A stretch of DNA of 64,000 nucleotides from assembly GCA_047967505.1 (NCBI GenBank), contig CM106538.1; one strand, given 5' to 3'. Shown here piece by piece: positions 27,097-63,900 of this stretch. The notes beneath the pieces were generated by a model that did not search any database, was not told where the DNA came from, and worked only from the letters and a program-made list of their open reading frames with translations. The position numbers were made by a program, and so were the translations under genes. Positions within the stretch are counted from its first letter, which is position 1; the number at the start of each line of letters is the position of its first letter. Source of the DNA: Dipteris shenzhenensis (lineage: Eukaryota).

Positions 27097-27721
27097 GGAG
27101 GCAGTCGATAGAGCGAGCAAGGAAAAGTGAGCGGGCCTAAAAAAGAGAGCAAGCTTTTCCATAATTTCCTTATCGAGGTAGTCAACATAGCTTTATGGAA
27201 ACTAGTATTTGGGAAGATTCTTGAAAATAAAACTTATCTTACTATGTGTATACTATACCAACATTGCGAATTATAGTCTACCTTAACTTCCAATTGGAGC
27301 CATACTCACATTATGCAACAATAGTATGTGGGTTTGAAAGAAACCAAATTTCCACTCCAAAGCATAGGAGTCCATTACTGATACAACAATTATTTCGCAT
27401 TTGAAATGGGTTTTATTATCACAACTCCTTCAATAATCAAAACAAATGCATTGCTTGATATGTTGAACTTAGTAACATAAACATCACTTCACCCATATGC
27501 GGGAAGAACAAACTGTCTGTAGACTTCATGGCATGGGATTGCATCAACACTTATGACATTCAAGATGTTCTTCTTATTAAAAGTGTTATCAACCATGAAA
27601 GAGGTGAATGTTTAAAAATAGTTCACCCGTTTGTTGAAAAACCCAAGTGTCATTTATGACATTCAAAATTGTTCTTGCAACCATCGTGTAGTCCCTAGAG
27701 ATTTTGCCCGTACTTCTAACC

Positions 27722-28115
27722 CCTTCCTTTCAACCACTAAGAGGTACCTAATAGTTTTGTAGAACACTTGAGATATCGTCACCTCCTAATATAAAACCAT
27801 TATTACTATTTGTAGAACACTTGAGATATCATCACCTCTTAATACAAGACCATTCTTACTATTTGTAGAACACTTGAGATATCATCACTCCTTCCCTTCA
27901 ACCACTAAGAGGTACCTAATACTTTTGTGGAACACTTGAACCATTCTTACTATTTGTAGAACACTTGAGATATCATCACCTCTTAATACAAAACCATTCT
28001 TACTATTTGTAGAACACTTGAGATATCATCACCTCTTAATACAAGACCATTCTTAGTATTTGTAGAACACTTTAGATATCATCACCTCTTAATACAAGAC
28101 CATTCTTACTATTTG
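27722..28115. repeat. 53-bp minisatellite (about 6 units) with a higher-order duplication
   Basis: Unit tgtagaacacttgagatatcatcacctcttaatacaagaccattcttactatt starts at 27758, 27811 and 27864. 27722-27770 recurs at about 27890-27940. Confidence 0.9.
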
Positions 28116-30764
28116 AGAAATTAATGGATTAAAGGTTTGAGGCTCATAGGAGACAAAGGAAGAGAAAGTCAGTTTCAACATGAGGACAATAAAACTAGTT
28201 GGAATATTTTGACTTATGTATTATACCTTTTTGAATGAATTTAAGTTAGTTTCAACATTAGGATGATAAAACTAATTAGAATGTTTTGATTTATGTATTA
28301 TATCTTTTTGAAGAGTATGAATTTTAATGAGGAGAGGCATGCACACTAATTAGTAAATACACTAGTACTACTACTAGCCTACGACTATTAAGCCTAGTAG
28401 CACCAGCGTAATTTTTGAGCCTTGTGTTAGCCTTTCGATAATTTTCTTTCATCGTTAGTGCAATAGCAATTATTCCTTCTATCAAAAGAATCTTGCCAAA
28501 TTTATTCAAAGCGATGATTTTGTAGTCTACAGCCACTATCCTCTGACTCTCAAAAATATATTAAATGTGAGCACCCATTTATCTTGTATGATCAACCCTG
28601 AACTCTGCTGCTGTGGCTATAGTTCACAGTGAACTACTGCGAGGATTTAATAAGAACAAAAACGATAAGAATTGATAGGACATTACTAGAACAAAAACAA
28701 TCTGAATTGATATGGTGATGTTTGGTGTGAAATAACCAAATTAAGGATTTAAGAATGAAAACAATAAGAATCAATAGGCTATTCAATGGCTCAAATCTGC
28801 ACACAAATTACAATGTGCCTCCCAACTCTTATGCATTCTAGCTCCTCATGTTTGACAAGAATGTAAACGATAATGAAATCACATTGTCCGTACTTTCAAA
28901 GCAAGCAAAGCACCAAAAATAAATGCAAATGCATTAGATGAGGTGATTTACTATATTAAATAGGTATAGATCTAGATAGACCTATATATATGCAATCATA
29001 GATCTAATTGATGATTTAAGTTGGACGGTCGTAATAATAGTGTGTGCACTATCATTGGGATTAGGACTAATATTGGTAATTTTGTATGTAGTAGTAGGAG
29101 AACTACCATTAAGGAACACTCCAATAAAATTGCTAATGGTAGTGACAAAACTACCACTAGTAGTTTGGTAATTACCCCTAACATCTACAAAAAATATTTG
29201 ATAGGTAGCTAGTAGTATTAGATCAAAAGGCCCCAATTGTGCTATAATAAGGGACCAAAAAAGGGAGTGCTATAGCATCACCTAAGGGTCACTTTTTATT
29301 TATGAAAGAAACAAGTTGGTGCAACCTAGGTTATATAGATCTAGGTCATGTGCAGTGGTTTGTGTCTCTTTCCTTGATAAAAAAGCTACACTACCGTTTG
29401 ATAGTAACTACAAAGGTTGCTGCCATAGTGTCGTAGAGTAGCCCCTAGGTTGCATGATCATCCTTTTTTGCTTTTGAGCCATTAAGTTTGATCCATTGAT
29501 TTTTATGTAGACTATATATTCACATGTCCTTAATGGGATCTTCATTATAATCCCTTCCATTGTAATAAGTAACTTTACTATAAGTTTCACATATCCTTAA
29601 CAAACCACTAGGCTTTAACACAGATTCATTCTTATGTTTCAAGCCTCAAACTCAAACACCCTTGTAAAAGGGATAATGTATTAAAGCTACATTCAATCCA
29701 TCAAATCTTTTGAATGACAGTTCTATTGAAAATTCATGTATCATTTATAGGATTTCATCCATTATATGTTCATTTGTCTTTAATAGTATGTCTAAAAATT
29801 CATGTATCTTCAATATTATTTCTCTCATGTGTTCCAATATCTTCAAAAGGATACCTTTATTTATGTCCAAACTTGAGCATTGATTTGTATTTCTCAAACA
29901 CAATTTCACTCCACCTATTCTTTAGAATGAAAAATTTTCACCATATGTTATGGCCAAACATAAAGTCTTTCCACATATTCTTAAGAATGAAAATTTTGGC
30001 CTTACATTGGCAAGTCTATGGAACAAGGGTAAGGCCAAAGTTTGGTACGGTGCATGAGGTCTTGATTAATGCTTCTTTAGGCTTGAATATTCAATGTATT
30101 AAATTCATGACTATTATTTATGCTTGAATATTTAATGTATTAAGTTCATGACTTAGGATTTTACAAAGTTATATCTAACATGTCAAACATTTGATGGAAA
30201 TTAATATCCTACACAATACAACAAAGTATCATCATATCCCTTCCCGAAATCATTGCTATCTGGCCACTCTCCTGGCATTTTCACTGCCTTGCATTTGAGA
30301 CAGCTATGATGAAGAACGTTCCCTGGCTTTGCACCCTCTTAGAGTTACCGTCAGCATGATCTAATTTCATGGGCCCCGAAACTTAAGACTTGGAGATTCC
30401 CATATCACACCAATGGTAGCTGTCTTGTCCACTCTCAATGCTAGTAAGAGCCAGTTCCCATAGACCGGTAAAAGAAGTCTTTTTGGAGGTTCAATTTTTT
30501 CCCTCCGTCTTCTCTAGGCCCCATGATAGAATAGGATATATTCACCACCCTACATTTAATACAAGAATTGACAACTTTTTTTGGACTTGACCATGCAGTT
30601 TACATCCCAAAATTAGTGCTAAAATTGAAGACTGGGCATCTCCATTTTCCGGGGGGTGCCCCTAGCGACCCCGTGGACTTGCTCTATTTGTCTAGTTGGG
30701 TCTCTCCAAGAAAATTGGAGTGGGGCCTATTTTCCCCATCTAGTAAAACTGTATGCATCAAATA

Positions 30765-30787
30765 TGTATGTATGTATATAATGTGTG

Positions 30788-30836
<49 letters not shown>

Positions 30837-31100
30837 ATGTATGTATGTATATGTACTAAAACTACTAAAACTATATGCATCAAATAACATTATTGATCAA
30901 TTTTTGGCATACCCTCCCCAAAATCAAGACCCCCATTGCAAGGAAAGGTAAGGAACACAAGTGCTTGTTGTTCTTATGCTCATAAGACAATAAAATGCAT
31001 GAAATAGGCAACCAATGGGGTCTTACTTTTGATGTATGTAAGTATTTACATACATAAATAAATAAATAAATAAATAAATAAATATATGTATGTATGTATG
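30765..31100. repeat. (TATG)n/(TG)n/(TA)n and (TAAA)n microsatellites
   Basis: Direct reading at 30765-30855 and 31054-31100. Confidence 0.9.
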
Positions 31101-31596
31101 CATATGTTAATGCATATATGTATATATTGATGCATACAAATTTGATATATGGAAAAAATGGAAATGAAAACCATCTAAATTGGCTCTTGCCATTCGATTT
31201 GATATATGATATGACCCCATTTGGATTTGTAAGTCTAAAGATACAGGGTCCTACTTTTAGGGCCTAAATGCCTGAAATAGGCAGCACGTTGCAATGCCTA
31301 TTTCAAGCATTTAGGCCTCAAAAGTAGGACCCCATTGCAATGCACTGCCTATTTCAGGATTCAGGCCCTAAAAGTAGGACCCCATATTTTTGGACTTGCA
31401 TATCCAAATGGGGTCATGTCATATATCAAATCGAACGGCGATGGTTTTCATGCCTATCATTTGCATTTAATAAAACTATATGCATCGAATAATGTTGTTT
31501 ATCAATTTTTGGCATACACCCCCCAAAATCAAGACCCCCATTGCAAAGAAAGGTAAGGAACACAAGTGCTTGTTCTTATGCTCATGAGACAACAAA
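30866..31596. repeat. ~125-bp direct repeat pair (30866-30995, 31471-31596) flanking a foldback
   Basis: taaaactatatgcatc..aaaatcaagacccccattgcaa..aaggtaaggaacacaagtgcttgtt occurs twice. Confidence 0.85.
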
Positions 31597-32444
31597 AAAG
31601 AGGCTTGGTATCCCAAAAATGGTAGCGTATCAATGCGTTGTCATTTTTGGGCCATCAGGCCTCTTTTTTATTGTCTCACGAGCATACATATGGAGGTTAT
31701 TATACAATATAACTAAGCAGTAGTATTGAAGTAGTTTTACAAATTGGATGCATTAAGAGCATTCATATACCAAGGAAGAATATAATGATTGAATACATTT
31801 TTTTTTTCAATACATATTGCCAGTGAGGCTACCAAAAACAAGCTCTACCCCTCATGATGTGAGATTGCTTGATGCTTGGATTGCAGCTGCTGGTAGCGTT
31901 GCATGGGTGAAGCCACTATATGCCTCAAGTGCTAGAAATTGATGTATGCCTCAAGTGCTAGAATGTGCAAATCATGGCCAAAATCAAGACCCCTTAGAGA
32001 TTCCATGAGGGTTATCATATCCACATTTTTTTCCTTTTACTGCTATACACATGTCACCTTTAGTCGAGGGCAGAACCATTCGTCATCATAGGTAGCAGGT
32101 TCATGGGACCCCATCCCATGATCCAAGGCATTATTCAAAGACAAAGTATTTTTGACCATTCCCAAATCGAGTTTGCCAATTCCTAATCTGATTGATTTCA
32201 TTTACTGGACTTGCAATGCCTGCAAAGCCCTTGCTTAAGCTTGAATGAGCCTCTTGATTTTGGGGGTGTAATGGTCGAAAATAGCAGCGCTAAGCCATTT
32301 TCGACCATTACACCCCCAAAATCAGGAGGCTCATTCAAGCTTAAGCAAGGGCTTTGTAGGTCTTGTTTTTGGGTGGCAGAAGCATGAAAATGGCAGCGCA
32401 TTAATGTGCTACCATTTTCATGCTTCCCTCCTCCAAAAACAAGA
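31164..32444. repeat. Cluster of four foldback palindromes (31164-31451, 31577-31686, 32219-32360, 32361-32444)
   Basis: Arms read directly as reverse complements. The 67-bp arms of 32219-32360 differ at only 3 positions. Confidence 0.9.
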
Positions 32445-35400
32445 TCCCCAAGCTTTTCATTAGAGACACCAAAATGAGGGAAGATTGGAATCTTGCAGAT
32501 GTACATGGCCCTCAAACTTGTCGATGAGGGAGAATGCATTGTTGAAGGAGCCTACCAATGAGGGGAAGGGCGAGGAGTAGAGGATCTGGCCAATGAGGGG
32601 AGGGACGGATCGCTAGCAACAAGTAGGATGCGAGTAGGATGCAAGGAGGTGAGAAGGCAAAGAAGCAAGGAGGTGAGGAGGTGAGGAAGCAAGGAGGCAA
32701 GGAGGCAAGAGCCATTCTTGTTGTGATTAATTGCACTACAAACAACTCAAGCCATAAGCACCATGGATAAATACAATAATACACATCACAAATGGATGCA
32801 TACACTCATATACATCACCGATGGACGCATACACTCATACTCACATCAATTTCCAATATTGTATTAGATGGACCCTTAGCATACATGTGTGCATATAAGA
32901 CCATTTCCTACATTGATCCTTGATTTCATAGTTAAATTATTCCCTTTCTCACATTCTAACATGTGAAGATTTAATGTACATGCATTATGGGCACATTATA
33001 TTGCATTTTATGACTAACTTTTTTACGAATGCTTGATACTTGTATTTGGTCAAAGAAGGTATATTATCATTTTTGAATGACAACGTTACTCTATGCTCCA
33101 TTTTATCCTATATTAGACACTGTGATCACTAGATATTACATAAATATATTGCTCCATTATATCCTATACTAAAAACTATTCTAACCCAAATACATAACAC
33201 CAATTGAGGTTAGTAATTATGAAAAGTGGTGGTGATGAAAACATTCTAATGGTATGAATGAGATCATTTTAGATATATAATATGGGTACTATGTTGATTG
33301 AGCTATGACCCTTTTCTAAGGGAATCTTTTCAACTTAATTACTAAATAAATACATACTTTGAATGTGACCTGATTCCCATCTATATGTATATTCAAGTTT
33401 TACTATGTGTTAAAAAAAAAGCTTTCGCATAAGGTTTATTTTCAAATAGTATTTATATTTGTTTAAGACTATCCATTGAGCTGGCTCCTATCCTTAATGT
33501 CCATAAAGATTTTATGAATACAAATAGTAGCATTGGATCCCTTTTCAGTGGTTAGGGAATGAACCCTAAGGGTACCCTAAAATGACTATGTATTTCCTTA
33601 TTTGTAGCATGGAAGTGATCATGGTAGAGTGGCATAATCCCTATTTTGCTTTTTTCATAGGTTCTTTTGCTACTCATGGCTGGCAGATACACCACGGCAT
33701 AGATCTGAATAGATATTTGGTTTTTTGCTTCAACTTGCTTGACTAGACTTTCCTTGATGATTGTTTGATTGTGCCTGATGTGTGGTCAATGCCTTAATTG
33801 ATGCATTAAGTGCAATGTTTCCTTAAAGTTTTTCATACTACAGGATACAAGTTTGCTTATAGGGGTGGAAATAGAAGCTTGTTAACACCTGGTGCATATT
33901 TTCTGTTAGATGCAGCAGGATACTAGTTACAGAGTGTCTTTGCCAATTATTTCACTTGAATCATGCTCCTCTTATGCTTGAGTTTGTGGTCACATATTGA
34001 GTTTAACATAATAGTCTATAGGATATTGGATGAGCAATCAACATAGTGGTTCAGATGCATTCATTTCTAGTTCTAATAGAACTATCATTCAGACATTGGT
34101 CATAATAGAAGTATGGAAGGATAAAATCCTTTTTTGGCTCCTTAAGTTTTTCAAAGCATGGTATTGTTCAGATTACATAGGTATTTTCACTAAGCAAAAT
34201 TAATCCTTATGATCAAAATGTGTTTTTTTTCTTGTGACATAGTTGGTTTTGCTTCCATGTTTTTTGATCAAATGTATAGATGATCTTCTACGAGCATGGA
34301 AGACATGATATGTATATGTAGCACATGATCATGTTTACATATTTTCAATCATATATTCTACCTTGTGATCTATCATTATCTTGATGTGTGGATGTTCAAT
34401 TTGAGTAGTGTTTGCTTTTTTTATCACAAATCTTCTCCAAATCTTATATATTGTTGTGTCTCTACCTCTCCACAATGACTCAAGTGTGATAGTATGAGGA
34501 TGAAAGAGAAGTTAATTGTGACTTTCAGGCATGCCTTCATTGTTGGAATATGTTTGATTTGCTTATGATCACATCAATTGTTCCAATGATATTGAGAGGA
34601 ATAAGATACTGGATGAGGGGCTTGCTTGCTTGAAACCTCTTTAATCTTGCTCGCTTATTTGGGGCCGCTCACTTTTCTCCGCTCGCTTTTTGGTAATCCT
34701 CCTACAAAGTTTGTAGCCTTGTGAAGAGCATCATGAAGTTCTAATGAAACATGCTATTTCGGTTTGACATGGAGCAGCTCTATTGCAAGAAGCAATGATG
34801 ACAAAGATGCTTGATCGAAATGATGAGAAGGCCGCATTTCTATTAAGAGAAAGTAAAGGGAAAAGTAAGCCTTGCTGGTGCATGCCCAAAGAAAGAGTCA
34901 TTGAATTGATTTAGGTTTAGCCACAATGGTGTGGTCAAGAATGCTTAATTGTTGGAGGAGATTGGATTGGTGGGTGGCCTTACACCAATGGAAAGCATCG
35001 TGCCTCACCTACATTGAAGGAAACTGTCTGCCAAAGACTTGATTGTGGCAGGTAGGGATGCCATGAAAGCTCTAGCTACTACTAGGAGACTAGCCTTATA
35101 TGCTAAGTTAATGTATTGATGTTAGTTTAAAGGGTGGTCTTCTCTTGAAAGTCTAAAATTTGGGCCTGTATGTAATGCAACTCCATTGCAACAGCTTGGA
35201 AGGATTCCACTAGAAGAGGTTTGGCTCTCCCTTCTATGCAACCATGGCATGATCCATCCATCATGAGTGTAAGGTTCTATCTCTCCGTATTCATGAACTA
35301 GGTTCCTCGGCTTTCTAGGGGCATCTATTAGGCAACTCGTCTTGCATTTTATGGATATAGTTGACAATCCTTATGCACTCCCAATAGTTCTGCGGTTGGA

Positions 35401-40101: not shown

Positions 40102-41959
40102 GAGTAATTTCACCCCTACGATTAAATGTGCCTATAGCTATGGGCAAATCCAATCATAGGGATTGGCTTTATGTGCAGTCATCAGTGAATCTGGTCATTG
40201 GAATCACATTACTGCTAGTCTCCATCATTGAATTAGCATGTGCATGTGTTCTAATATGATCCTTAGGATTGGATAAGCATGCAAAGTATGGGTTATCTAG
40301 TCTCAAGGATCGGATTAGCTTGCATTGCCAGGAAGAAAATTAGCATGTAGGTGCATGCACATCTAATATAAGGATCAGCTTTGTAAGCATTTGCATGCGA
40401 TCTTAAGGGTCAACTTTGCATGGAGTAGCATGTGGATTCGACTACATAAGAATATTAATCCTATCTTGAGGATACATTAGCATGCTAATCCCATCCCTGG
40501 GATTTGTCTTTCCCACTTTTGCAAGCAATTCCAATCCTTGGGATCGAATTTGCTTGCAACTATGGGAAAAACTCAACCCCTAGGATTAGATTTTCAATGA
40601 ATTTATAGCGTTTAGTTTTGCACTGAAAAACTTGATAATTCCAACAAAAAATTTCATGCTACCGTAAGTTTTCCTTGTTACGAAGAAGGACCTTTTCACG
40701 TATAAACTTCATGGTACCCTAATTTTTCCTTGTTTTAATAAGAAGGGTCAGAAGAACCCTTCTGACAGCATCCGACCCACCGTTGTGCTCCCTTGTCTTT
40801 TCTAGAGGCTTGTCATCTTATTAAAGTGAGGACCAAGCCAAGGTCTTTGATAGTGAAGTCCAAGCTCTTTGCCTCTCATGGCTAGAAGCATAGGTTGATC
40901 AACGATTCGTTTCCATCTTTCCAATAGAGCGATTTTTTTTTTAACAGACCAACTCACTCCTTTGAGTCATGAGTACCTCACCCACATATGGTACATGGAA
41001 TTTAGTGACTCCAAAAAACTTATATCTTTTATGGGGTAGGGGTGCAATGGAGAAAAAGGATGAGAGGAACTTTAAATGTTGTGGCACTATGGGGGAGCTG
41101 CAATACAACGAGGACGATAGCTCCCAAATTTCCATCATTTTCTTGAGCAATGTCATCTGATCTCCAAAAAAGGTGGTGGGTAGCAAGAGGACTTATGAGT
41201 TATCATTAATCAATCTTAGATAGCAATTTTAGGAGGCCATAAGAAATAACTCCAATATTTTACCTTACCTTGCTTCTTACATGTTCCCAAAGTAGTTGGA
41301 AGTGTTAGATCCATTTATGTTAAGAGAAGCAAAAGAAGAGGATTCCCTCCAAGTTTAGAAGGGTCAAGAATGAAGAGTAAGCTAATTACAAAGAAGGTCT
41401 AGGTAGCACTTTTGGACACCATCGATGAGGACAAGGACAAATAGGTTGATGCAGTCACTTTGTCCCTCATCTTCGGGATGGTGGAGACCTAGCAAAACAT
41501 CTTACAAGAAGATATGTGGCTTCACAAACTCGTTGTTGACATTTGGACTTTGGAGCTACAAGTGAAGAAATGTGATAGGCCCCCTCTTAACCCTTGCTAC
41601 TCGATGATAAACTTTGGAAATCAGAGAGCCACATCCAGTCCAAGTGGCAAATTTGAGAGCAAGTTAAAGATCAATACCTTTGCCAACATCTTCCTATTTC
41701 TTGTCATGATAGATCCTAGACAACGCCTTAAGAAGATTTGTTTTGATACTATTGCATAGGCTTTTCTTATTCACAAACCTCATTAGACATATTATTAGAT
41801 TTGTGCTCTTTAACTAGTAGCACTAGATAAATAGCAATTGCACTTTCAAATAACTTCATCTTCTAGTGCTTTCCTATTGCATAGGCTTTCCTTATTGACA
41901 AATCTCATTAGACATATTATTAGATTTGTGCTCTTTATCTAGTAGCACTACTACTATCT

Positions 41960-45957: not shown

Positions 45958-47311
45958 GAGATTGTGGCCGTCGGATGCAGGGAGCGGACGGTTAGGAAGG
46001 GCTCTCATATACGCCGACGCCCTATCTACTTTTTCTTCCGTATCCCTTTACTGAACATCATCTTTTTGCGAGTCCATTCCAAAGCGTTTTTGCCGATGAT
46101 CCTCGTTGCTTAATCCGACGCTCTTTGGTTCTGCTTCAATTGCCGCTTTCATCCGGTACTTGCCTACCCTTGCCTCTCCTCCCTTTCGTTTGAACTTAAT
46201 TTTTGCATCTTCCACCTGTAATCCCTCGGTCGATTCCGGAGGTTGTCGGAGAATATCTCACTGCTGCGGTTGGATACCGTTGTGTCACATTTTCCCTCAA
46301 TAATTCGTCGAAGGTCTCATTCGGTGGCACCCGAACGTTTTTCCTCTTATCTGATAAGGCTACGTAGCGCAATCCGTTGCGAAATGCGAAATTCTGCAGG
46401 CTGCCCCTGTTTTCTAGGGTTGTTTGTGATTCCGGAGATTTCTAGATGCTATGTTGCGCACTGTCGCTGCCCCTGTGGTTTCTAGGGGTGGCTGTGATTG
46501 TGGAGATTTCCAGATGGCTGTGTCGCGCACCGTCTTATCTCGACAGCATAGCTTCCGTCATGCCTTAAGTATTTCGTCAGACGTTTGAGCTCTATGATTT
46601 GCGTTTTTAGGAAGCGGTCTTATCATTGATACTTCCTTGGCCGAACGAATTAGGTGCGATTTGTTTCACTCTTTAAATGACGTCCAGCAAAGTCTTTGTC
46701 AAAGAAGACGTGATGATTATAGTTAAGTAGTGTCTCACGGAGCTAAATGAAAACAGGGACCGCTTTCAAGGGTTTGACCGAATTTTGGTATTTTGACCCT
46801 GGCAAGCCACGTGTCCTTGCAAGACACATATGGGTAGAAGATTTTTTATTGCCTTCATAGCCTTCAGAGATTGTCATTTGATATGAATGGCGTAGACACC
46901 TTCGTAGATCGTTGTGTATCAGAATAACTACGGGCTTGCTTATGCCTCTGTAAGGGGTTTGCACCCGCGTTCTGTCCCTTGCCTCTCTCTCTGAAGAGGT
47001 ATCCAATATCTCAAGTTTGGGGCTTGTTAAATGTTTAGACTCGAAAAGGACAAGCTGAATTTGAGTAGCGCCAGGCTCACGCTTTATGTATTCATTGACA
47101 CAGCTGACATGCAAGTTCGGATAGGATTTGCACATTACTACAAAGTTTAAGTTCTTGAAGATGCATTTCAAGGCTGGAATTCTAGTTAGGCACGACGTTA
47201 ATGCAAAAGTTCTGCCTCTTGTATTGAGTAGTCTATTTGCTCTTCTGTGAGGTTCACATACTGACGTTGCAAACTTTATTTTTCTGCCATAGGATTTTGA
47301 CAAGTTTTAAC

Positions 47312-49318
47312 ATGCCAAGATATGACGAGCGATCTGGTCCCACGCGGCTGTATGTGGGACGTCTTTCTACCCGAACTCGCAGCCGTGATCTTGAAGATCT
47401 TTTCAGCAAGTATGGCAGGTAAGGAAAGGGCCAAAGGCAGCCATCCTCTAGCTGCTTTATATGTAATTGGTGGCTGCAAAGTGCTTGAAATGAATCCTTC
47501 TTTGTCGGGGCAGATATGAAGAGTTAGTTGCATGATGCTAGATGCGTTTTAGGCTTTTTTATAGGATCTTGGTATGCACTTTCAGGGAGCCCAGGGCCCT
47601 TTTGTTATATATTTGTATTTTCCAGTCCTCAATGTTCCTGGCCAGACCAGTGTCACGCCTAATGGGGAGGGAAGACAGTTTACAACAATGTCAACATGTC
47701 AAGGAAAAACGATTTGTGGCAGTAGGTCCAATTGTTAACTTTAGTGATGTTGTTGAAGGTTTGGTGGGTTTTCGCCCGGCCTGGAGGTTAATGTTGAGAT
47801 TGGCCATGGTGGCATTGGTGGCCATACTTGCAAGGGTTAATGGGGACACCTTGGCGCATCTAGGCGTGCTTCTTTATGTATATCCGTTCGTACATTGATG
47901 GATTGGCGAGGGTGGAAAATGGTGTTTGGTTCATCTGATGCGCGGTGTATGGTGACCTGCTTGACATGGTGCGCTGCTCTTTTTTTCTGGCACGCCTTGA
48001 CGCAGAGTTCGAGATGTGGATCTGAAGCACGACTTCGCCTTCATTGTGCGTAAAACTCAACTCTATTTATATTTCGGTATTATCTATTATGTTGCTAATC
48101 ATTCAGGAGTATTTCAAAGCAGAGTTGTGACCAAGGATTCAGGAAACCCTACTGCAAGATTTATCTTTGTTCTGGCATGATTGACAAGAGATAACAGCTT
48201 GGATGTTAGTTGACTACCTTGGTCATGCAGGACTTTAGTGATCCCCGGGATGCTGATGAAGCGCGACACTATTTGAATGGACGAAGCTTTGATGGTAGTC
48301 GTATTGTGGTGGAGTTTGCTAGACGGGTATGTTCCTTGGAGCTTTGAATCTTTGATTCATTAGACCAGCTATATTTTTGTGCTTGGGTTTTAGAATCTAA
48401 AGTTTTCGGTACTCCCAAATGGTAGCCTTTAAAGATTATACAAGACCTTCTGTTTCCTGAGCCAATGACAAAGTTTAGTTTTGGGTGTTGCAATTTAAAA
48501 CAGTTTTGGGTTCATGGTGTTTTTTGGAACTTGTACACAATATTTGTTCCAGGATTTCTGTTGTTTTTTGTAGAAAGTCTTTATCACGGGTTATGCTGTT
48601 TGACAGGGGCCTCGGGGTGCTGGTGGTTCAAGGGAATATCTAGGAAGAGGTCCTCCTCCAGGGACAGGGCGATGCTATAATTGTGGTCATGATGGTCATT
48701 GGGCGAGAGATTGCAAAGCAGGAGACTGGAAAAACAAATGTTACCGCTGTGGACAGCGAGGGCACATTGAGCGAAATTGCCGCAGCAGCCCAAGGTTATC
48801 CTCGAGGCGGGTTCAGCTTCAATTCGTGGAAAGCTTACCTCTCTGCTATATACTGATCCATACTCATGGGTTTATTTGGTGTAGGTCCAATGGAAGTCGT
48901 TCACGATCTCGCTCCCGCTCTCCATCGGCAGGACAGCGAAGGAGCCGGAGTCGTAGTTATAGCCGAAGCCGCAGTGTCAGGTTTGCCAGCTTGACTTGTT
49001 TGTGTTGCAGGATGGCTCTGGAAGTCAAGTCTTATTATTACTGTTTCTTGCAGCCAATCTCCAAGAAATGAAGGTCGCAGTCCCGCACCGGAGCGTCGAG
49101 CCAGGAGTGGAAGCCGTAGCCTGTCTCATACCCCCCCTCGACGGGAAGTGCTAAGCCGTTCCCGTAGCCCTGCGGTAAATGGGCAGAGTCCCAATGGCAG
49201 TCCACGTCAGGATGCCGGACGGAGTGAGAGCGGTAGTCCAATCCGTGATGTTAATAATCACAAGGAGCATAGATCTCCTGCTAGAGATGAGCACAGTCCT
49301 AGCCAATCGGGTGATTGA
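47312..49318 (+). CDS. RS2Z: Serine/arginine-rich splicing factor, RS2Z subfamily (RRM, two CCHC knuckles, RS/SP tail), ~263 aa; join(47312-47418,48006-48045,48231-48326,48607-48794,48885-48980,49054-49318)
   Basis: [115 protein letters not shown] repeats. GT-AG introns with consistent phases give an open 792-nt frame. A 5'UTR intron acceptor is at 47292. Confidence 0.95.
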
Positions 49319-54169: not shown

Positions 54170-57150
54170 AAACACACACACACACACACATGCACGCACA
54201 CACTTCCTACCCCATTCCTCCTTTTGTTTATTCACTTGCTCATTCACGCCCCCCCCCCCCCCCCCATTTCTTTACTTAGTTTTCCTAATCTACCTTTTTC
54301 CAACATTCATTTTTTCATTCGATTTATATATAATCCATTTTTACCTTATTTCCCCCCCTTCTCTCTCAGTTTCCTTTAAAGCCCCCCCTTTTTTTCTTTT
54401 TTAATTTACTTTTCTCTTATTTCCCCCCTCTTTCTTCCTTTTTTAAATAGCTTTCTTCTTTTCCTTAATGTCTCTCCTTAGTTTTCTTTTTCAAAATTTT
54501 ACTTCTTAATTTTTATTATTCTCCTTAACTTTTTCTAATTTTCCATAATTTATTCCTTAATTTCCTAAATTTACTTTCCTTTATTAATCTTCCCCTTGTT
54601 TTCCAAATATCTGTTTTTTTTAATTGCCTAAAAATTCCCTTACTCTCCCGCTAAAGTTTCTTGTTTTTTCCTTTCTCTTAATCTTATTTTCTTTCCTCAT
54701 ATTTTTTTCCTTTTTATAAATTTTAGGTTTTAATTTTATTACTTTCCTCTTACCTTAATTTTCCTAAAATACTCTTGAGACATTTTATTTTTCTGTAAAA
54801 GGTCCCTTTATTAATTCAAACCAAAACTTAGTATAGTCCTAACAACCGCCCCTCCTCTTCGCACACCCACACGTGCTTCTCGATTCCTCTGCTACATTTT
54901 TTGTTGTCACTGACTCCTGGTACACCCACATTATGAGCTGCGCATGACTTTCTAGCTCCCTCGTTATTCTCACCTTCCCAACTCCCCACCTTCCCGACTA
55001 TCATCTCCCCTAACTATATAAAGCCCACTACCGACCAGCTCTGCCCACTGCAATCTCTCTAGCTCTACTCCCCTTCGGTTTGCTACACTGTCCCGCCCCT
55101 CATTTTTCGCTGCTCGTTGCCCAAGCCATCACATCCCTCTACTCCCGTGCGATTTTCTTGTGCCAGTGTCCGGTTTCGGCAACTCTCCAGCTCGTGCGAT
55201 CGACTCCAAGCGCCCCCGTGCACCTCTTTTCTATAGACTGTGCGTAAACTCCTTACGCCTCTCCTTCCTGGTGCTAGCCCATCAACACGTCATGGACTCT
55301 CAGGTTCTCATCATTTACCCCCCTCCCCAACCTTTTTGCTTGCATCTTTTTACCCCTCTCTCTATGTATTTGCCCCCGCCCCCTCTCCTCTCTTTGTAGT
55401 TACCTACCCCCCCCCCCGCCCCCCCTCTCTATGTATGTATTCCTCCCCTTCTCTATTTATTTATCCTCTCCCCTCTTTATCTATATATCCCCCCTTCTCT
55501 ATGCATTTATCCTCCCTCCCCTCTTTATCTATATCCTCTTGTCTCTATGGTGCCCCCCCCCGCCCCCCTTCTCTATCTATATATGTATATCTCCCCTTCT
55601 CTATGAACTTTTCCTCCCCTCTCTATCTACATTTCGTCCCTTCTCTATGTTCCCCCCCCCCCTATATATATGGCCCCTTCTCTATGTATATTATTATTTC
55701 CCTTGTCTATTTATTAAACCCAAGCCACCACCCCCCTCCCCTTCTTTTTCATACACATATAACTTTCCCCCCCCTCTTTACATATATACCCTTCCCCTTC
55801 TCTATATATATACTTTTTGCTTTCTTCCTCCTTCTCTATATACTTATCCTCCCTCCCCCTTCTCTATTTTCCTCATTTTCTTTCCCCCTCTCCCTACGCT
55901 ATGAACATATTTTCTTTTACATTCCTTCCTGTTTTTTGTCCCCCTTCTCTCTTTATAAAAATCCCTCAAATTTTCTTGTATTTTTCTCCTTATTACATTA
56001 TCCTGTTATACTCTATCTGTAAGTATCTTTTTCCTTTCTCTTGTTTGTGTTTTCCTGTCTCTTCTGTCCTTTATTCTCCCTTTCCCTTTTTTCCCTTCCC
56101 TCTCATCTACCTTATTATCCCTTTATCATAGTTCCCAGGGATCATCTTTATATAAAACCCCTTTCATTCTTCCCTTTACTGTTCCCCCCCCCCCTTTTTT
56201 TTTTGGTTGCCCACCTTCCATATTCTCGTTGTTTGTAACCAAAATTTCCCCATACTTTTCCACACCTAACCTTTTACATAACCATGCAACCTAACCTTTA
56301 CCTAAACACTCTACCTAAACACTCTACCTAACCTTAATAGTTTACATCTTACTGGTTAGGTTTATGGCTAAGCTTCTAATTTATTGTGACCCCGATAACA
56401 AGGGAGGATTGTTTATGACACCTATCTTCCCAACTTAAGCTGGTTCTTGTCATGTTTTCCTCTTGGATGGTGGCATGTATGCAGATTCTCCTCTTTTATA
56501 AAAGAGATGCTTGTCAAGACTTCACCAGCTTTAACTTTTTGTAAATTTTTTTTTTTTGCTAAAACATTATTCACACTTCTCATAAAAAACTCTTACATAC
56601 TTTTTATACAATTTTGTAGGTGCTTTACCTACATACTCAAACACTTCCTTAATTCTATAATGTTCTCTTTCTACTCTTTTCCTTGACTCTTTTGTGTTTT
56701 AACTATGCAAAAGTGATTGTTGTCTTGTCTACCAAATGCATGTCTTTTCCCCTGCAACTCCAGATGGTTGCACACAGTCCACTTTAGTCATCAAGGCTTT
56801 TTAGCCTCTTGACTTCTTTCATTAAATTGTATTTTTCTACATTTTACAAAAAAATCTTGTTACTAATTCCTTTTCTTATCTTTGTAGAAATACTCTTGGG
56901 ATACTACACTTCAGTCCAAGTCACTCAACACTCGTCTCCCAACTCCCTCTCTCGCGACTCAAGTGGTACTCTCATGTTTCCAAAAAGCTAAGTTTTTCTC
57001 ATTCATTAGATCGCACGTTCTTGAGGCTCTTGCAAAAACACTTCTTTGCTCTTAAAATGCTTTCCCTTAATGATTGGATCAAGCTTCTCAAATTCTCACA
57101 AAGCTTGATCCAATCTTATCTTCTTTCCTAATATTTTTTCCCTTTTTTCC
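54170..57150. repeat. Unclassified pyrimidine-skewed element, copy 2
   Basis: Same C/T skew, (CA)n start and shared core (56380-56760) as 19290-23290. Confidence 0.55.
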
Positions 57151-60590: not shown

Positions 60591-61894
60591 AGCTCGAAGA
60601 TCATCTTGGTTAACTCAAAGCTGCCAGAAGACAATCCTGGTTAACTATGATCTGCTATTGGAAGTCTATCCTTTCAGTCCAAACACTGGCACTTGAATCA
60701 TCAGGGAGGCAAGGAGGTTATTGAGAGAGTATGTGGGGGAGGAGTAGCTCGTTTGCACGTGAAACAGCTCCAAAAAGCATTCTAATCCTTATAGAGGAAG
60801 GAGGAAAGAGGAGCCTAGAGCATGTGGTGTTTTGAGTATTAAATTAAGGGTTACCTTTGATATTGCAAAGGATTTAGAGTATGATTGAGTGAGGCATCAT
60901 AGTATGTAAGGTTAATCTGGACATGAATTTTTTGTTTAAGTCTTACTTACTCTAGTATTGCAATTGACTTGATATGATGCTTTGCCTCTTTTGATGTTAT
61001 AGGAATCTATCAAGCTCATTAAAGCCTATGGTAATTTCAAGGTGTTTGCAATACGAGTACGACTATTGACATTTAGGTACTATGTCAATCTCTTATATGT
61101 TCATGAGAATTAATTGCGATGCTACTTGAAGCTAATATTCTCGATGTTCTCAATCTTGATGCCCAGGAAACGGCCCGTTTCCTTAGATTATAACTCTTTG
61201 GGGTAGGAAGCATGATGCCTCCCTGCCCACACTACGTGTGGTTATAACAATTATATTAGATATTATTATAAAAATATTTTTAATTGCTTACTCATTTTTC
61301 CTTTCCGTACTTACTTGAATCTAAATCCTTACAGCATTCCTCTCTTTTGATGCATGTTCTTTATGTGAGGGACCATTCGGAATAGCCAAGTGTGTTGCAA
61401 GATCAAAGGATGTTTGTATGTTTGTAGTCCACATCATAAAATTATAGATTGTAATAATAAGGAAATTATGAGCTCTTGTGAACATAGATTTATTGATGTA
61501 TTTGGTGGTAATAAAACACCACCCCTCACATTTGCAGGGAGGTTTGAGTCCTAATGAGTCCTACATCTTGTCTCCCATGTCCATATTTTCACTCAAATTT
61601 TTTCCCCTTTTAAAAACTTAATAAAGTGGAGTTATGTGCTCTATGATGAATGAATGAATGATTGAATCCCAAGGACTATGAAATATAGGGAGCGATCTCA
61701 ATGAATGAATAAATGCCAAGGATAAACAAGGGAAGAGGATTTAATTTGTGACTGTTTCTCGGGGCATTATGCTACTCAAAAACCCATTTAGAGGAACACT
61801 ATATTTTTGTGTGATTATGTTATTGCTTATTTTGTTTTCTCATGTTTGTGCCTCGTTTGTGCTTCCTTTACAATGGTTTTTTGGCATCCACTCT

Positions 61895-63900
61895 AGTCTT
61901 CTATAAACATGGAAATGTTATGATTATGTTGTTTGATATTTCCAGAGCTCCTAGACATACCAATGATATTTTGGTCAGGGGTATCTTGATGTGGACCATG
62001 CATGACTACCCAGGATATGGAGAGTGCGCAGGTACGTGGTTGTGTCTTTACATGTACAATGAGGGATTATGCTTTTTTTACTCTCTTTTGCACACATGTC
62101 TTGTACTAACACATTCATGCACACGTGCAGGACTTGTTACAAGTGGGTACCATGCTTGTCCTGTTTGTGGACCGGCTCTAAAATCGCTTGCACGCTACTC
62201 CAAACATATGAGGAAAAATATTTATGAAGGTCATGCTCGATACCTTCCGCTCGACCATCTCGCACATGGAGGTCAGCTTGATCCACCACCATCATATTTG
62301 AAGGCAAGTGATTGGATTCAAGCTTGGAGGACGAATGGAGAGGAACCTCCTCCTGGTATGAAGAGGCTATAGATCTTTCACGAGCTTCCTTATTGGGGTC
62401 AGTTACAAATCAATCATCTCTTGGATCCCATGCATATCTTCAAGAATGTGGGGGCTACTATTTGAGCACACTTGGTTGGTTCCAAGGACTCGAGAGGAGT
62501 GCGAGAAGACTTGCATGCTATGAATATGATGTCTTGTTTGTGGCCCCAAGTGCATGCTTCGGGAAAAGTTATCCTCCCGAAAGCAACGTGGATCCTCTCT
62601 ACGAGGGAGGAGGCAGCGGTCAAGGCAGACATTGCCTCTTTTCAAACACTGACAGGGTACATGCGTTGCTTGAAAGAAGCATTTTCAAAGGACAATAAGC
62701 TTAGTGGCCTCAAGTCCCATGATTGGCACAAGGTCTTACAGGTATTCTAAGTAGAATTAGTGTACCGATAATAGTGATGCGTTAGCGTAATTATTATTAT
62801 GTTATATTGTTGACATGACTTCATTGTTGCTTTGATAGTTCATTCTCCCAATTACAATAAAAGGGTGCTTACAAGAAGATGTTAGAAATGTTATATTCAA
62901 GATCTGTGGTATTGTGAGGTATGCTTACTATCAAATCGCATTATGTATTTTCTTAATGGACATGTGAAATAGATGGATATCTCAAATATCTTACAGATGC
63001 ATGGACATGTGAAATAGGTGGATATCTCAAAAAGAGATCTCTATATCGAGCATGGAGAAGGCTAGGGTGGAATCCATCGAAGTCATATGCTTGCTTGAGA
63101 AGCACTTTCCCTCAAGCATTATGACAACTCAAGTCCACTTGCTTGTGCACATAGTTGATGAGGTAGCTATAGCAGGTACCGTTCATAATCGATGGATGTT
63201 TTTTTCTCGAGCGGTTTATGAAAACTTTAAAGGGGTTTGTAAGACAAAGAGCAAGACCGGAAGCAAGCATGGCAGAGGGATGGCTTGTGCAAGAGTCATT
63301 AGTATATATCACAGAGTTTCTTGCATCCACAGATCCTGATATGCCGCAAGCTTGGCACAACAAGGATGATGATCGCATCATTGGCGAGGTTCCCCAAGGA
63401 AAAGGGATTGAAAGAAAGATGAGCGAAGAGCAAATGGAGAAATTCAATAAGTTTTGTATCCTCAATAGCCCTGAGATGTAGAAGTGGATTGAGAGATATG
63501 AAGTAGCTAAAGCAGAAAGAATAAATGCAAGGACGAGATTCAGAGTAATGTGCAGGCGATCACAACCATATCCACGAGATTTGGCTCTTCTCCCTACTCA
63601 CATGTCACTTGATTGGCTACAACTGGCTCTACGTAAAGCCGAACATGATGGAGAGACAATAAACGAGCGCGCGAGCGGGAGTTATCATCTGGATGTATGG
63701 TGCATGTAAGTTTCTTATCTCTTGACGTAATTAAGTAATTATTTGTGGCAATATATGCTATAAAATAGGTGCATCTTCATTGTTTTAATGATGCTCTTTT
63801 ACAGTACAAAAAGTACAGTGCATTATGATCATATGGACGACATTTTCGCGTGGAACGCAAGCCATTTCAAAGTCTTCTTCGCTCACTTGTTTGTGGCCGG
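61895..63900 (+). mobile_element. CACTA (En/Spm) transposase pseudogene (Transposase_21/DUF4218-like), intron-containing
   Basis: WTMHDYPGYGECAG|LVTSGYHACPVC, LDPMHIFKNVG, SGLKSHDWHKVLQ, VHLLVHIVDEVAIAGTVHNRWMF, ERFMKTLKGFVRQRARPEASMAEG. Introns at 62032-62130 and 62742-62838, stops at 62370 and 63479, frameshift near 63200. No CACTA terminus seen. Confidence 0.92.

Follow-up and report, generated by a model that had tools for sequence, protein, structure and literature searches.

The four hairpins described here most likely sit within a larger multi-copy fern repeat, which is undescribed, non-coding and at least 2 kb long. They have the appearance of old fold-back products in decay, not of the work of a new enzyme, and no dedicated enzyme is necessary to account for their origin. 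Their common tip goes back to a single unit of ~50 bp, old and diverged copies of which underlie the hairpins. This shared tip is what had drawn attention to them in the first-pass annotation of the window (the whole 64-kb stretch of DNA analysed here), which raised the possibility of a site-specific palindrome-generating mechanism.

Four hairpins built on one module

The four hairpin cores, referred to as H1 to H4, agree letter for letter with the first-pass annotation and lie at the coordinates given there. In an ungapped hairpin scan of the 64 kb, they were the top four of six hairpins with a score of at least 14 (59.5, 30.5, 29 and 24.5, with the next two at 15 and 14.5), against a best score of 14 in simulated DNA (order-3 Markov, 30 sequences, each of 64 kb). 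Two weaker hairpins, at 40499–40579 and 57072–57115, carry neither the apex nor the box motif described below. The hairpins and the modules within them are as follows.

30993–31034 (+): remnant of a head-to-tail module junction, consisting of an apex-half start, CAAT and a lone box at 31017–31034
31125–31491: H1, a palindrome of ~370 bp with arms of ~180 bp; boxes at 31245–31262 (+), 31316–31333 (−) and 31366–31383 (−)
31275–31303: H1 apex, as named in the first-pass annotation
31290–31385 (−): tandem of the 50-bp module, two copies head-to-tail
31577–31686: H2, with 54-bp arms; apex at 31616–31647; without a box
32214–32365: H3, with 72-bp arms (93%); boxes at 32248–32265 (+) and 32314–32331 (−)
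32354–32451: H4, with arms of 42–49 bp; apex at 32387–32418; boxes at 32357–32374 (+) and 32431–32448 (−)

The H1 apex is as first described, whereas the hairpin itself extends further than had been recognised, and its right arm contains a 50-bp tandem duplication. The H3 apex (32278–32301) carries a partial deletion, and H4 directly adjoins H3.

That the four hairpins have an apex in common beyond chance was borne out. A profile was built from three hairpins and the fourth was left out, and in four of four such tests the left-out apex pair scored higher than all 62,187 positions outside the cluster, H1 passing narrowly (14.4 versus 13.5). The arms had been called unrelated, which holds for H2 and fails for the other three. 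We compared seven arms (the right arm of H3 and the inner right arm of H1 were omitted) against a null of 20,000 random window words. Beyond the 14-nt core, the arms of H1, H3 and H4 are identical at 15–20 of 32 nt, with p<0.02 in all eight cross-comparisons; the two arms of one hairpin match at 24–26 of 32. The arms of H2 match the other arms at 7–14 of 32 nt, with none of ten comparisons reaching p<0.05, and are mirrored from the adjacent 130-bp B segment. A GAGGCCT match between the H2 and H1 arms was rejected as not significant (p about 0.15). As the arms of H1, H3 and H4 descend from one module, their common centre primarily reflects common descent.

The module has a length of ~50 bp and reads, in order, TTGCAATG, an 18-nt box, 12 nt, and the apex half AAAATGGCAGCGCA; H1, H3 and H4 are pairs of modules joined head-to-head. 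All 11 copies of the box (GGGGTCYTRNTTTTRGGG-like) in the window, which occur in both orientations, fall between 30916 and 32448 (~1.55 kb). Using a box profile whose seeds were chosen by eye, ten of the 11 left-out copies outscored all 124,366 outside positions. The 11 arm/box copies align almost without gaps, with a mean column identity of 59%, and nine of the boxes are followed at +11/+12 by an AAAAT-like word. Four boxes are without a mirror partner. Six occurrences of TTGCAATG were observed in the cluster where 0.27 were expected, two of the six forming one palindrome.

Modules are also joined head-to-tail. In the tandem pair at 31290–31385 the junction is CATTGCAATG, a perfect 10-bp palindrome (31333–31342), and a second junction survives as the remnant at 30993–31034. 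A third case is provided by a contig from X1, one of the two public runs discussed below, which joins the H1 apex centre at 31290 to the box of the second B segment copy (B') at 31537 on the other strand. In sequence, the centres of H4 and H2 equal CATTGCAATG minus two letters.

The carrier repeat and its copies

Only two public runs, X1 and X2, match part of the stretch (0.08 and 0.05 of words). At 80% likeness, 17 contigs were placed from X1 (a 1.95-Mb assembly) and seven from X2. Together with the window, they outline a carrier with the following parts.

30550–32600: carrier, a non-coding multi-copy repeat region with all four hairpins; run contigs extend past both ends
30729–30860: left end of H1 in inverted copy, then a (TATG)n microsatellite; loose pairing with 31044–31159
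30863–30995: B segment copy 1, 89% identical to 31468–31597
31031–31124: (ATAA)n and (TATG)n microsatellites, absent from X2 record 9
31468–31597: B segment copy 2 (B'), with a box at 31521–31538
31865–32218: spacer without palindromic structure, contiguous with the left arm of H3 in both runs (X1 record 7, X2 records 12 and 13)
32480–32571: 92 bases to the right of H4, in place of which X2 record 14 has 13 other letters

The first B copy contains a box (30916–30933) with AAAAT at +12, and the GC-rich apex is absent from it. The spacer includes a lone box (31976–31993). In X2 record 14 the carrier continues rightward beyond 32480–32571.

Depth was found in 23 of 30 bins in X1 and in 21 of 30 in X2, spacers included; in runs of such low depth, uncovered bins are no evidence of absence. 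The 16 pieces listed cover 1323 of 2051 bases and differ from the window by 7.4% substitutions. The run contigs retain the arms and flanks of the window, namely H1, H2 (with the same arms in X2 record 11), the left arm of H3 with 350 bp of spacer, and the right arm of H3 with H4, the latter two being contiguous in X1 record 8. Among the best supported 40 of 82 sites, X2 carries the same letter as X1 at all 35 that both runs cover. In X2 records 9 and 10, B lies in inverted orientation beside H1 and the microsatellites are absent. As the same hairpins, arms and spacers recur at ~7% divergence, the cluster appears to be a fixed internal part of a non-coding, multi-copy repeat whose length is at least 2 kb. 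Its recovery, with several overlapping variants, from small or shallow assemblies points to a high-copy repeat, where depth is not to be read as copy number. An organelle or a tandem source is possible; a search for organelle signs near the cluster gave no tRNA, Rfam or Pfam match. Assembly graphs break at forks and may collapse palindromic arms, so that rarer copies with other arms would escape. By the first-pass annotation's own account, its reading would fall if the hairpins were fixed parts of one known transposable element with the same arms genome-wide. The finding of the same arms in two runs comes close to this, except that the carrier corresponds to no known consensus. No published description of the repeat was found in the openly accessible literature, with subscription journals and Repbase/Dfam outside the scope of the search, and the sole match to the motif strings was a work on Liriodendron markers.

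The differences between arms are one-sided decay. No two-sided (compensatory) changes are found among the 24 of the 40 listed sites that fall within the hairpins and B, and the arm mismatches of the window comprise 40 transitions and 12 transversions. In H4, where one contig spans both arms, seven of nine listed run letters break pairs of the window and two restore them. In H1, seven of eight listed run letters restore pairs, where contigs may have collapsed the arms and letters may come from the opposite arm. As the decayed H4 is common to both runs, the carrier appears to have spread without needing a perfect H4. By contrast, the runs carry another version of the H1 tip, one that is perfectly symmetric, so that correction or re-formation of the tip has taken place at least once.

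The first-pass annotation called for a search for linked HUH, tyrosine-recombinase or DDE genes; none was found near the cluster by Pfam and frame scans or with Rep motifs. The Pfam scans comprised 22, 62 and 108 frames, with 1–13.7 kb covered for some long ORFs only. Among the 62 frames of at least 55 aa between 26.7 and 46 kb there was no convincing Pfam match, consistent with a lack of coding capacity. The search for structured RNA gave no Rfam match at the gathering score and no tRNA. The window as a whole is plant-type and repeat-rich, with a copia element at 23.5–26.7 kb, chromodomain gypsy pieces and a reverse-transcriptase fragment. The copia protein has its best relative, at 68% identity, in a cluster containing a Pteridium aquilinum member, which makes a fern the probable host. 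The missing 5' part of the copia gag, whose continuation would mark an insertion, was not found past the cluster or past the inverted pair that brackets it. Exon-like frames at 47228–47419 and 48604–49068 contain an RRM start and two zinc knuckles (Pfam), and we take them to be, probably, a host gene for an RS2Z-type splicing factor. A broken CACTA transposase (Transposase_21 and DUF4218) lies at 61815–63478.

Several other repeats surround the cluster. Tandem arrays with periods of 53, 77, 41, 8/24 and 29 bp flank it on both sides (27756–28312, 30076–30153 and 32546–32848), and a 35-bp pair with CCAATGAGGGG lies nearby; these may belong to the same carrier. A weak inverted pair 7.5 kb apart (27097–27156 and 34642–34701) brackets the cluster, just past the truncated copia gag. 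It has internal GAGCG repeats, and its core (27121–27152 and 34646–34677) matches at 28 of 32 nt (E 0.006). This pair possibly represents the ends of the carrier, or else a separate repeat.

Outside the plant data, the apex pattern had no matches in viral contigs and 19 in metagenome contigs, none of them window-like beyond a core of roughly 30–40 nt. Most of these resembled short terminator-type hairpins in microbial DNA, with arms extended by 18–22 nt in three of the 19. In three microbial-looking contigs, L010 and L012 (both matching at 1501–1528) and L004 (1233–1261), a look-alike apex sits within longer palindromes. The same GGTGCCWGGCAC arms flank the apex in L010 and L012, in both orientations, and presumably resemble REP-type repeats. 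The 21-nt B word gave no match in viral contigs or in prokaryote genomes. A pattern of box plus apex had three viral-contig matches, which were rejected as they were non-palindromic and had no blastn match.

Origin of the shared centre

The account we lean towards is that the module grew in tandem, that host fold-back or template switching took place at the junction palindrome, and that the result then spread passively within a larger element. The module would first have multiplied head-to-tail, each junction being CATTGCAATG and thus a ready short palindrome. At CATTGCAATG, fold-back repair or a template switch could then turn a nascent or broken strand back on itself, with some 45–180 bp of the DNA behind it being copied. 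Each such event would yield another palindrome around this centre, its arms consisting of the module's own diverged sequence and whatever lies beyond it, and small deletions at the tip would produce centres of the CATTAATG and CATTGATG types. The composite would finally have spread as a unit on its carrier, the hairpins by now being decaying passengers. With the head-to-tail junction as a natural seed for fold-back or template-switch duplication, this account best explains why the centre is shared and the arm length variable.

Part of the original interpretation survives here. That arm length varies, from about 45 to 180 bp, is best accounted for by inverted copying with the apex as its centre. 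Neighbouring DNA also appears to have been copied into an arm: the outer 21 bp of the H2 arm are the end of B', and the H2 right arm mirrors these 21 bp of B, which are found un-mirrored in the first B copy at 30975–30995. No other arm gives as good a sign of such copying. A dedicated site-specific system that is needed or active finds no place in this account, given the descent of the arms from one module, the same arms in the runs and the one-sided decay.

Fold-back at short seeds has precedents. Fold-back inverted duplications are documented in yeast (PMC11724301), and a fold-back origin was proposed for the Angel MITE by Izsvak et al., as summarised in PMC5172404. The yeast duplications resemble the present case in that an inverted copy is templated from a short self-complementary seed by host repair only. 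They are mostly 5–34 bp and follow an induced break (PMC11724301), whereas here 45–180 bp would have been copied at homologous sites, repeatedly. This shorter length counts against fold-back as the origin of these arms. In the model for Angel (PMC5172404), the nascent strand likewise folds back on a palindrome and copies the preceding DNA, giving a longer palindrome around a fixed loop. Angel copies are short, dispersed and bounded by T2 termini, in contrast to the present hairpins, which have a GC-rich centre in common and lie inside one larger repeat, where no target duplication is seen. Also counting against fold-back is the different, perfectly symmetric variant of the H1 apex in the runs. 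Four reversals at one point of the module, together with the X1 break at the apex centre, would also fit a site-specific nick.

In its composition, the repeat works like known modular foldback DNA. Foldback4 of Drosophila (PMC2955051) and Hairpin of Arabidopsis (PMC5172404) are, as here, non-coding, with direct and inverted modules and long palindromes. These elements have one pair of long terminal repeats, whereas the present repeat has four internal hairpins and its termini were not found.

Other explanations for the common centre

H1, H3 and H4 could instead be subfamilies of a fully palindromic MITE of ~90 bp that inserted beside or into one another, the box being the tip of the terminal repeat and the nest being amplified later. 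In favour of such a nest, the geometry of box, 12 nt and apex is constant and H3 and H4 abut. Multimers and self-insertion are common among rice MITEs, and Hairpin (238 bp, with 114-bp arms) offers a precedent for the element itself (both PMC5172404). Its limits do not fit, however. In H1 and H3, symmetry continues beyond the box for about 120 and about 30 bp, respectively, and across H1, H3 and H4 it stops at different distances from the box, where a MITE should have a common terminal repeat. H2 has no box, and the four unmirrored boxes are also left unexplained. Direct repeats flanking eight end pairs, with a wobble of ±3 nt, were all at most 5 nt; the 3–5-nt matches at six of the eight are at chance level, and 7% divergence could erase a target-site duplication. 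No dispersed module copies are found elsewhere in the 64-kb window, and run contigs keep their flanks but break at forks. We regard a nest of MITEs as unlikely.

The module could also be the end of a non-autonomous rolling-circle element of Replitron- or Helitron-like type, with a hairpin, 12 nt and a terminal repeat. A Rep protein would nick it, and aborted transposition would fold back at the hairpin and turn flanks into inverted arms, which gives a concrete form to the mechanism raised in the first-pass annotation. If true, a plant genome would contain a generator of palindromes that is specific for one sequence, with Rep nicking at a fixed site. In Helitrons, the ends are TC...CTRR, a hairpin precedes the 3' end by about 12 nt and insertion is in AT; no RepHel domain was found among the frames scanned with Pfam. 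Replitrons are abundant in ferns and have a right-end hairpin and a short terminal repeat (PMC10288648). An 11-mer of the H1 box, AGTAGGACCCC, lies in the last 20 nt of Replitron-1_aNel, the sole fern consensus in PMC10288648, whose terminal direct repeat lies 11 bp inside the right end and which has more than 500 copies in Adiantum nelumboides. One run junction also breaks at the apex centre. The chance of the 11-mer is ~0.002 for one end but 0.05–0.2 over 32 ends of 16 land-plant consensuses, and AGTAGGACCCC is exact in just two of the 11 boxes. In the consensus file of PMC10288648, where FASTA line breaks could conceal motif matches, the apex 8-mers were found in parts 1 and 3 only, at a great distance from the fern record. 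Two short Rep motifs had no matches in six frames of the window. The present repeat differs from Replitrons, which are not known to carry long fold-back palindromes, and neither a Rep gene nor defined ends were found for it. With hairpins that are old and decaying, this reading strikes us as improbable.

We think it similarly doubtful that selection on a TIR transposon (CACTA or Mutator/foldback type) keeps box and apex, in direct and inverted order, as transposase-binding sites, whether subterminally or within a long terminal repeat of modular build. Subterminal regions of CACTA elements are composed of short units of 10–20 bp, direct and inverted (PMC8978399), and Foldback4 has modular palindromic ends (PMC2955051). 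The 18-nt box likewise recurs in both orientations across several hundred bases, whatever its position relative to an element end. The CACTA transposase remnant at 61.8–63.5 kb and the weak inverted pair that brackets the cluster (27121–27152 and 34646–34677) would suit this reading, but the remnant is 29 kb distant. None of the 14 × 15 candidate CACTA/CACTG end pairs (26–31.2 kb and 32.3–46 kb) match, and neither a terminus nor a 3-bp duplication was found. The inverted arms, at 45–180 bp, are far longer than subterminal units, and the H4 variant common to both runs is decayed.

Finally, each apex could be a head-to-head joint of two element ends with a CA-spacer-TG structure, which we take to resemble integrase- or DDE-type end joints and which the H4 centre, CA-TTAA-TG, would fit, but this is hardly credible. 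The spacer is constant neither in sequence nor in length, being 4 or 6 nt or deleted, and the 105 bp that separate the apices of H3 and H4 would have to be a chimera of two types of end. Deletions from CATTGCAATG account for the centres.

Fold-back at module junctions thus remains the account we prefer, and the cluster is probably a real, uncatalogued fern repeat made by known processes and not a new system. On this reading it illustrates, within 1.5 kb, how the self-complementary junction of a small tandem module can seed repeated fold-back duplications. This is useful for annotating fern repeats and bears on the long-standing problem of the origin of palindromic, MITE-like DNA. If the link to Replitrons were true, the cluster would instead reveal a eukaryotic HUH transposon with a fixed site at which long palindromes are made, and fern Replitrons would gain a testable cis-element.
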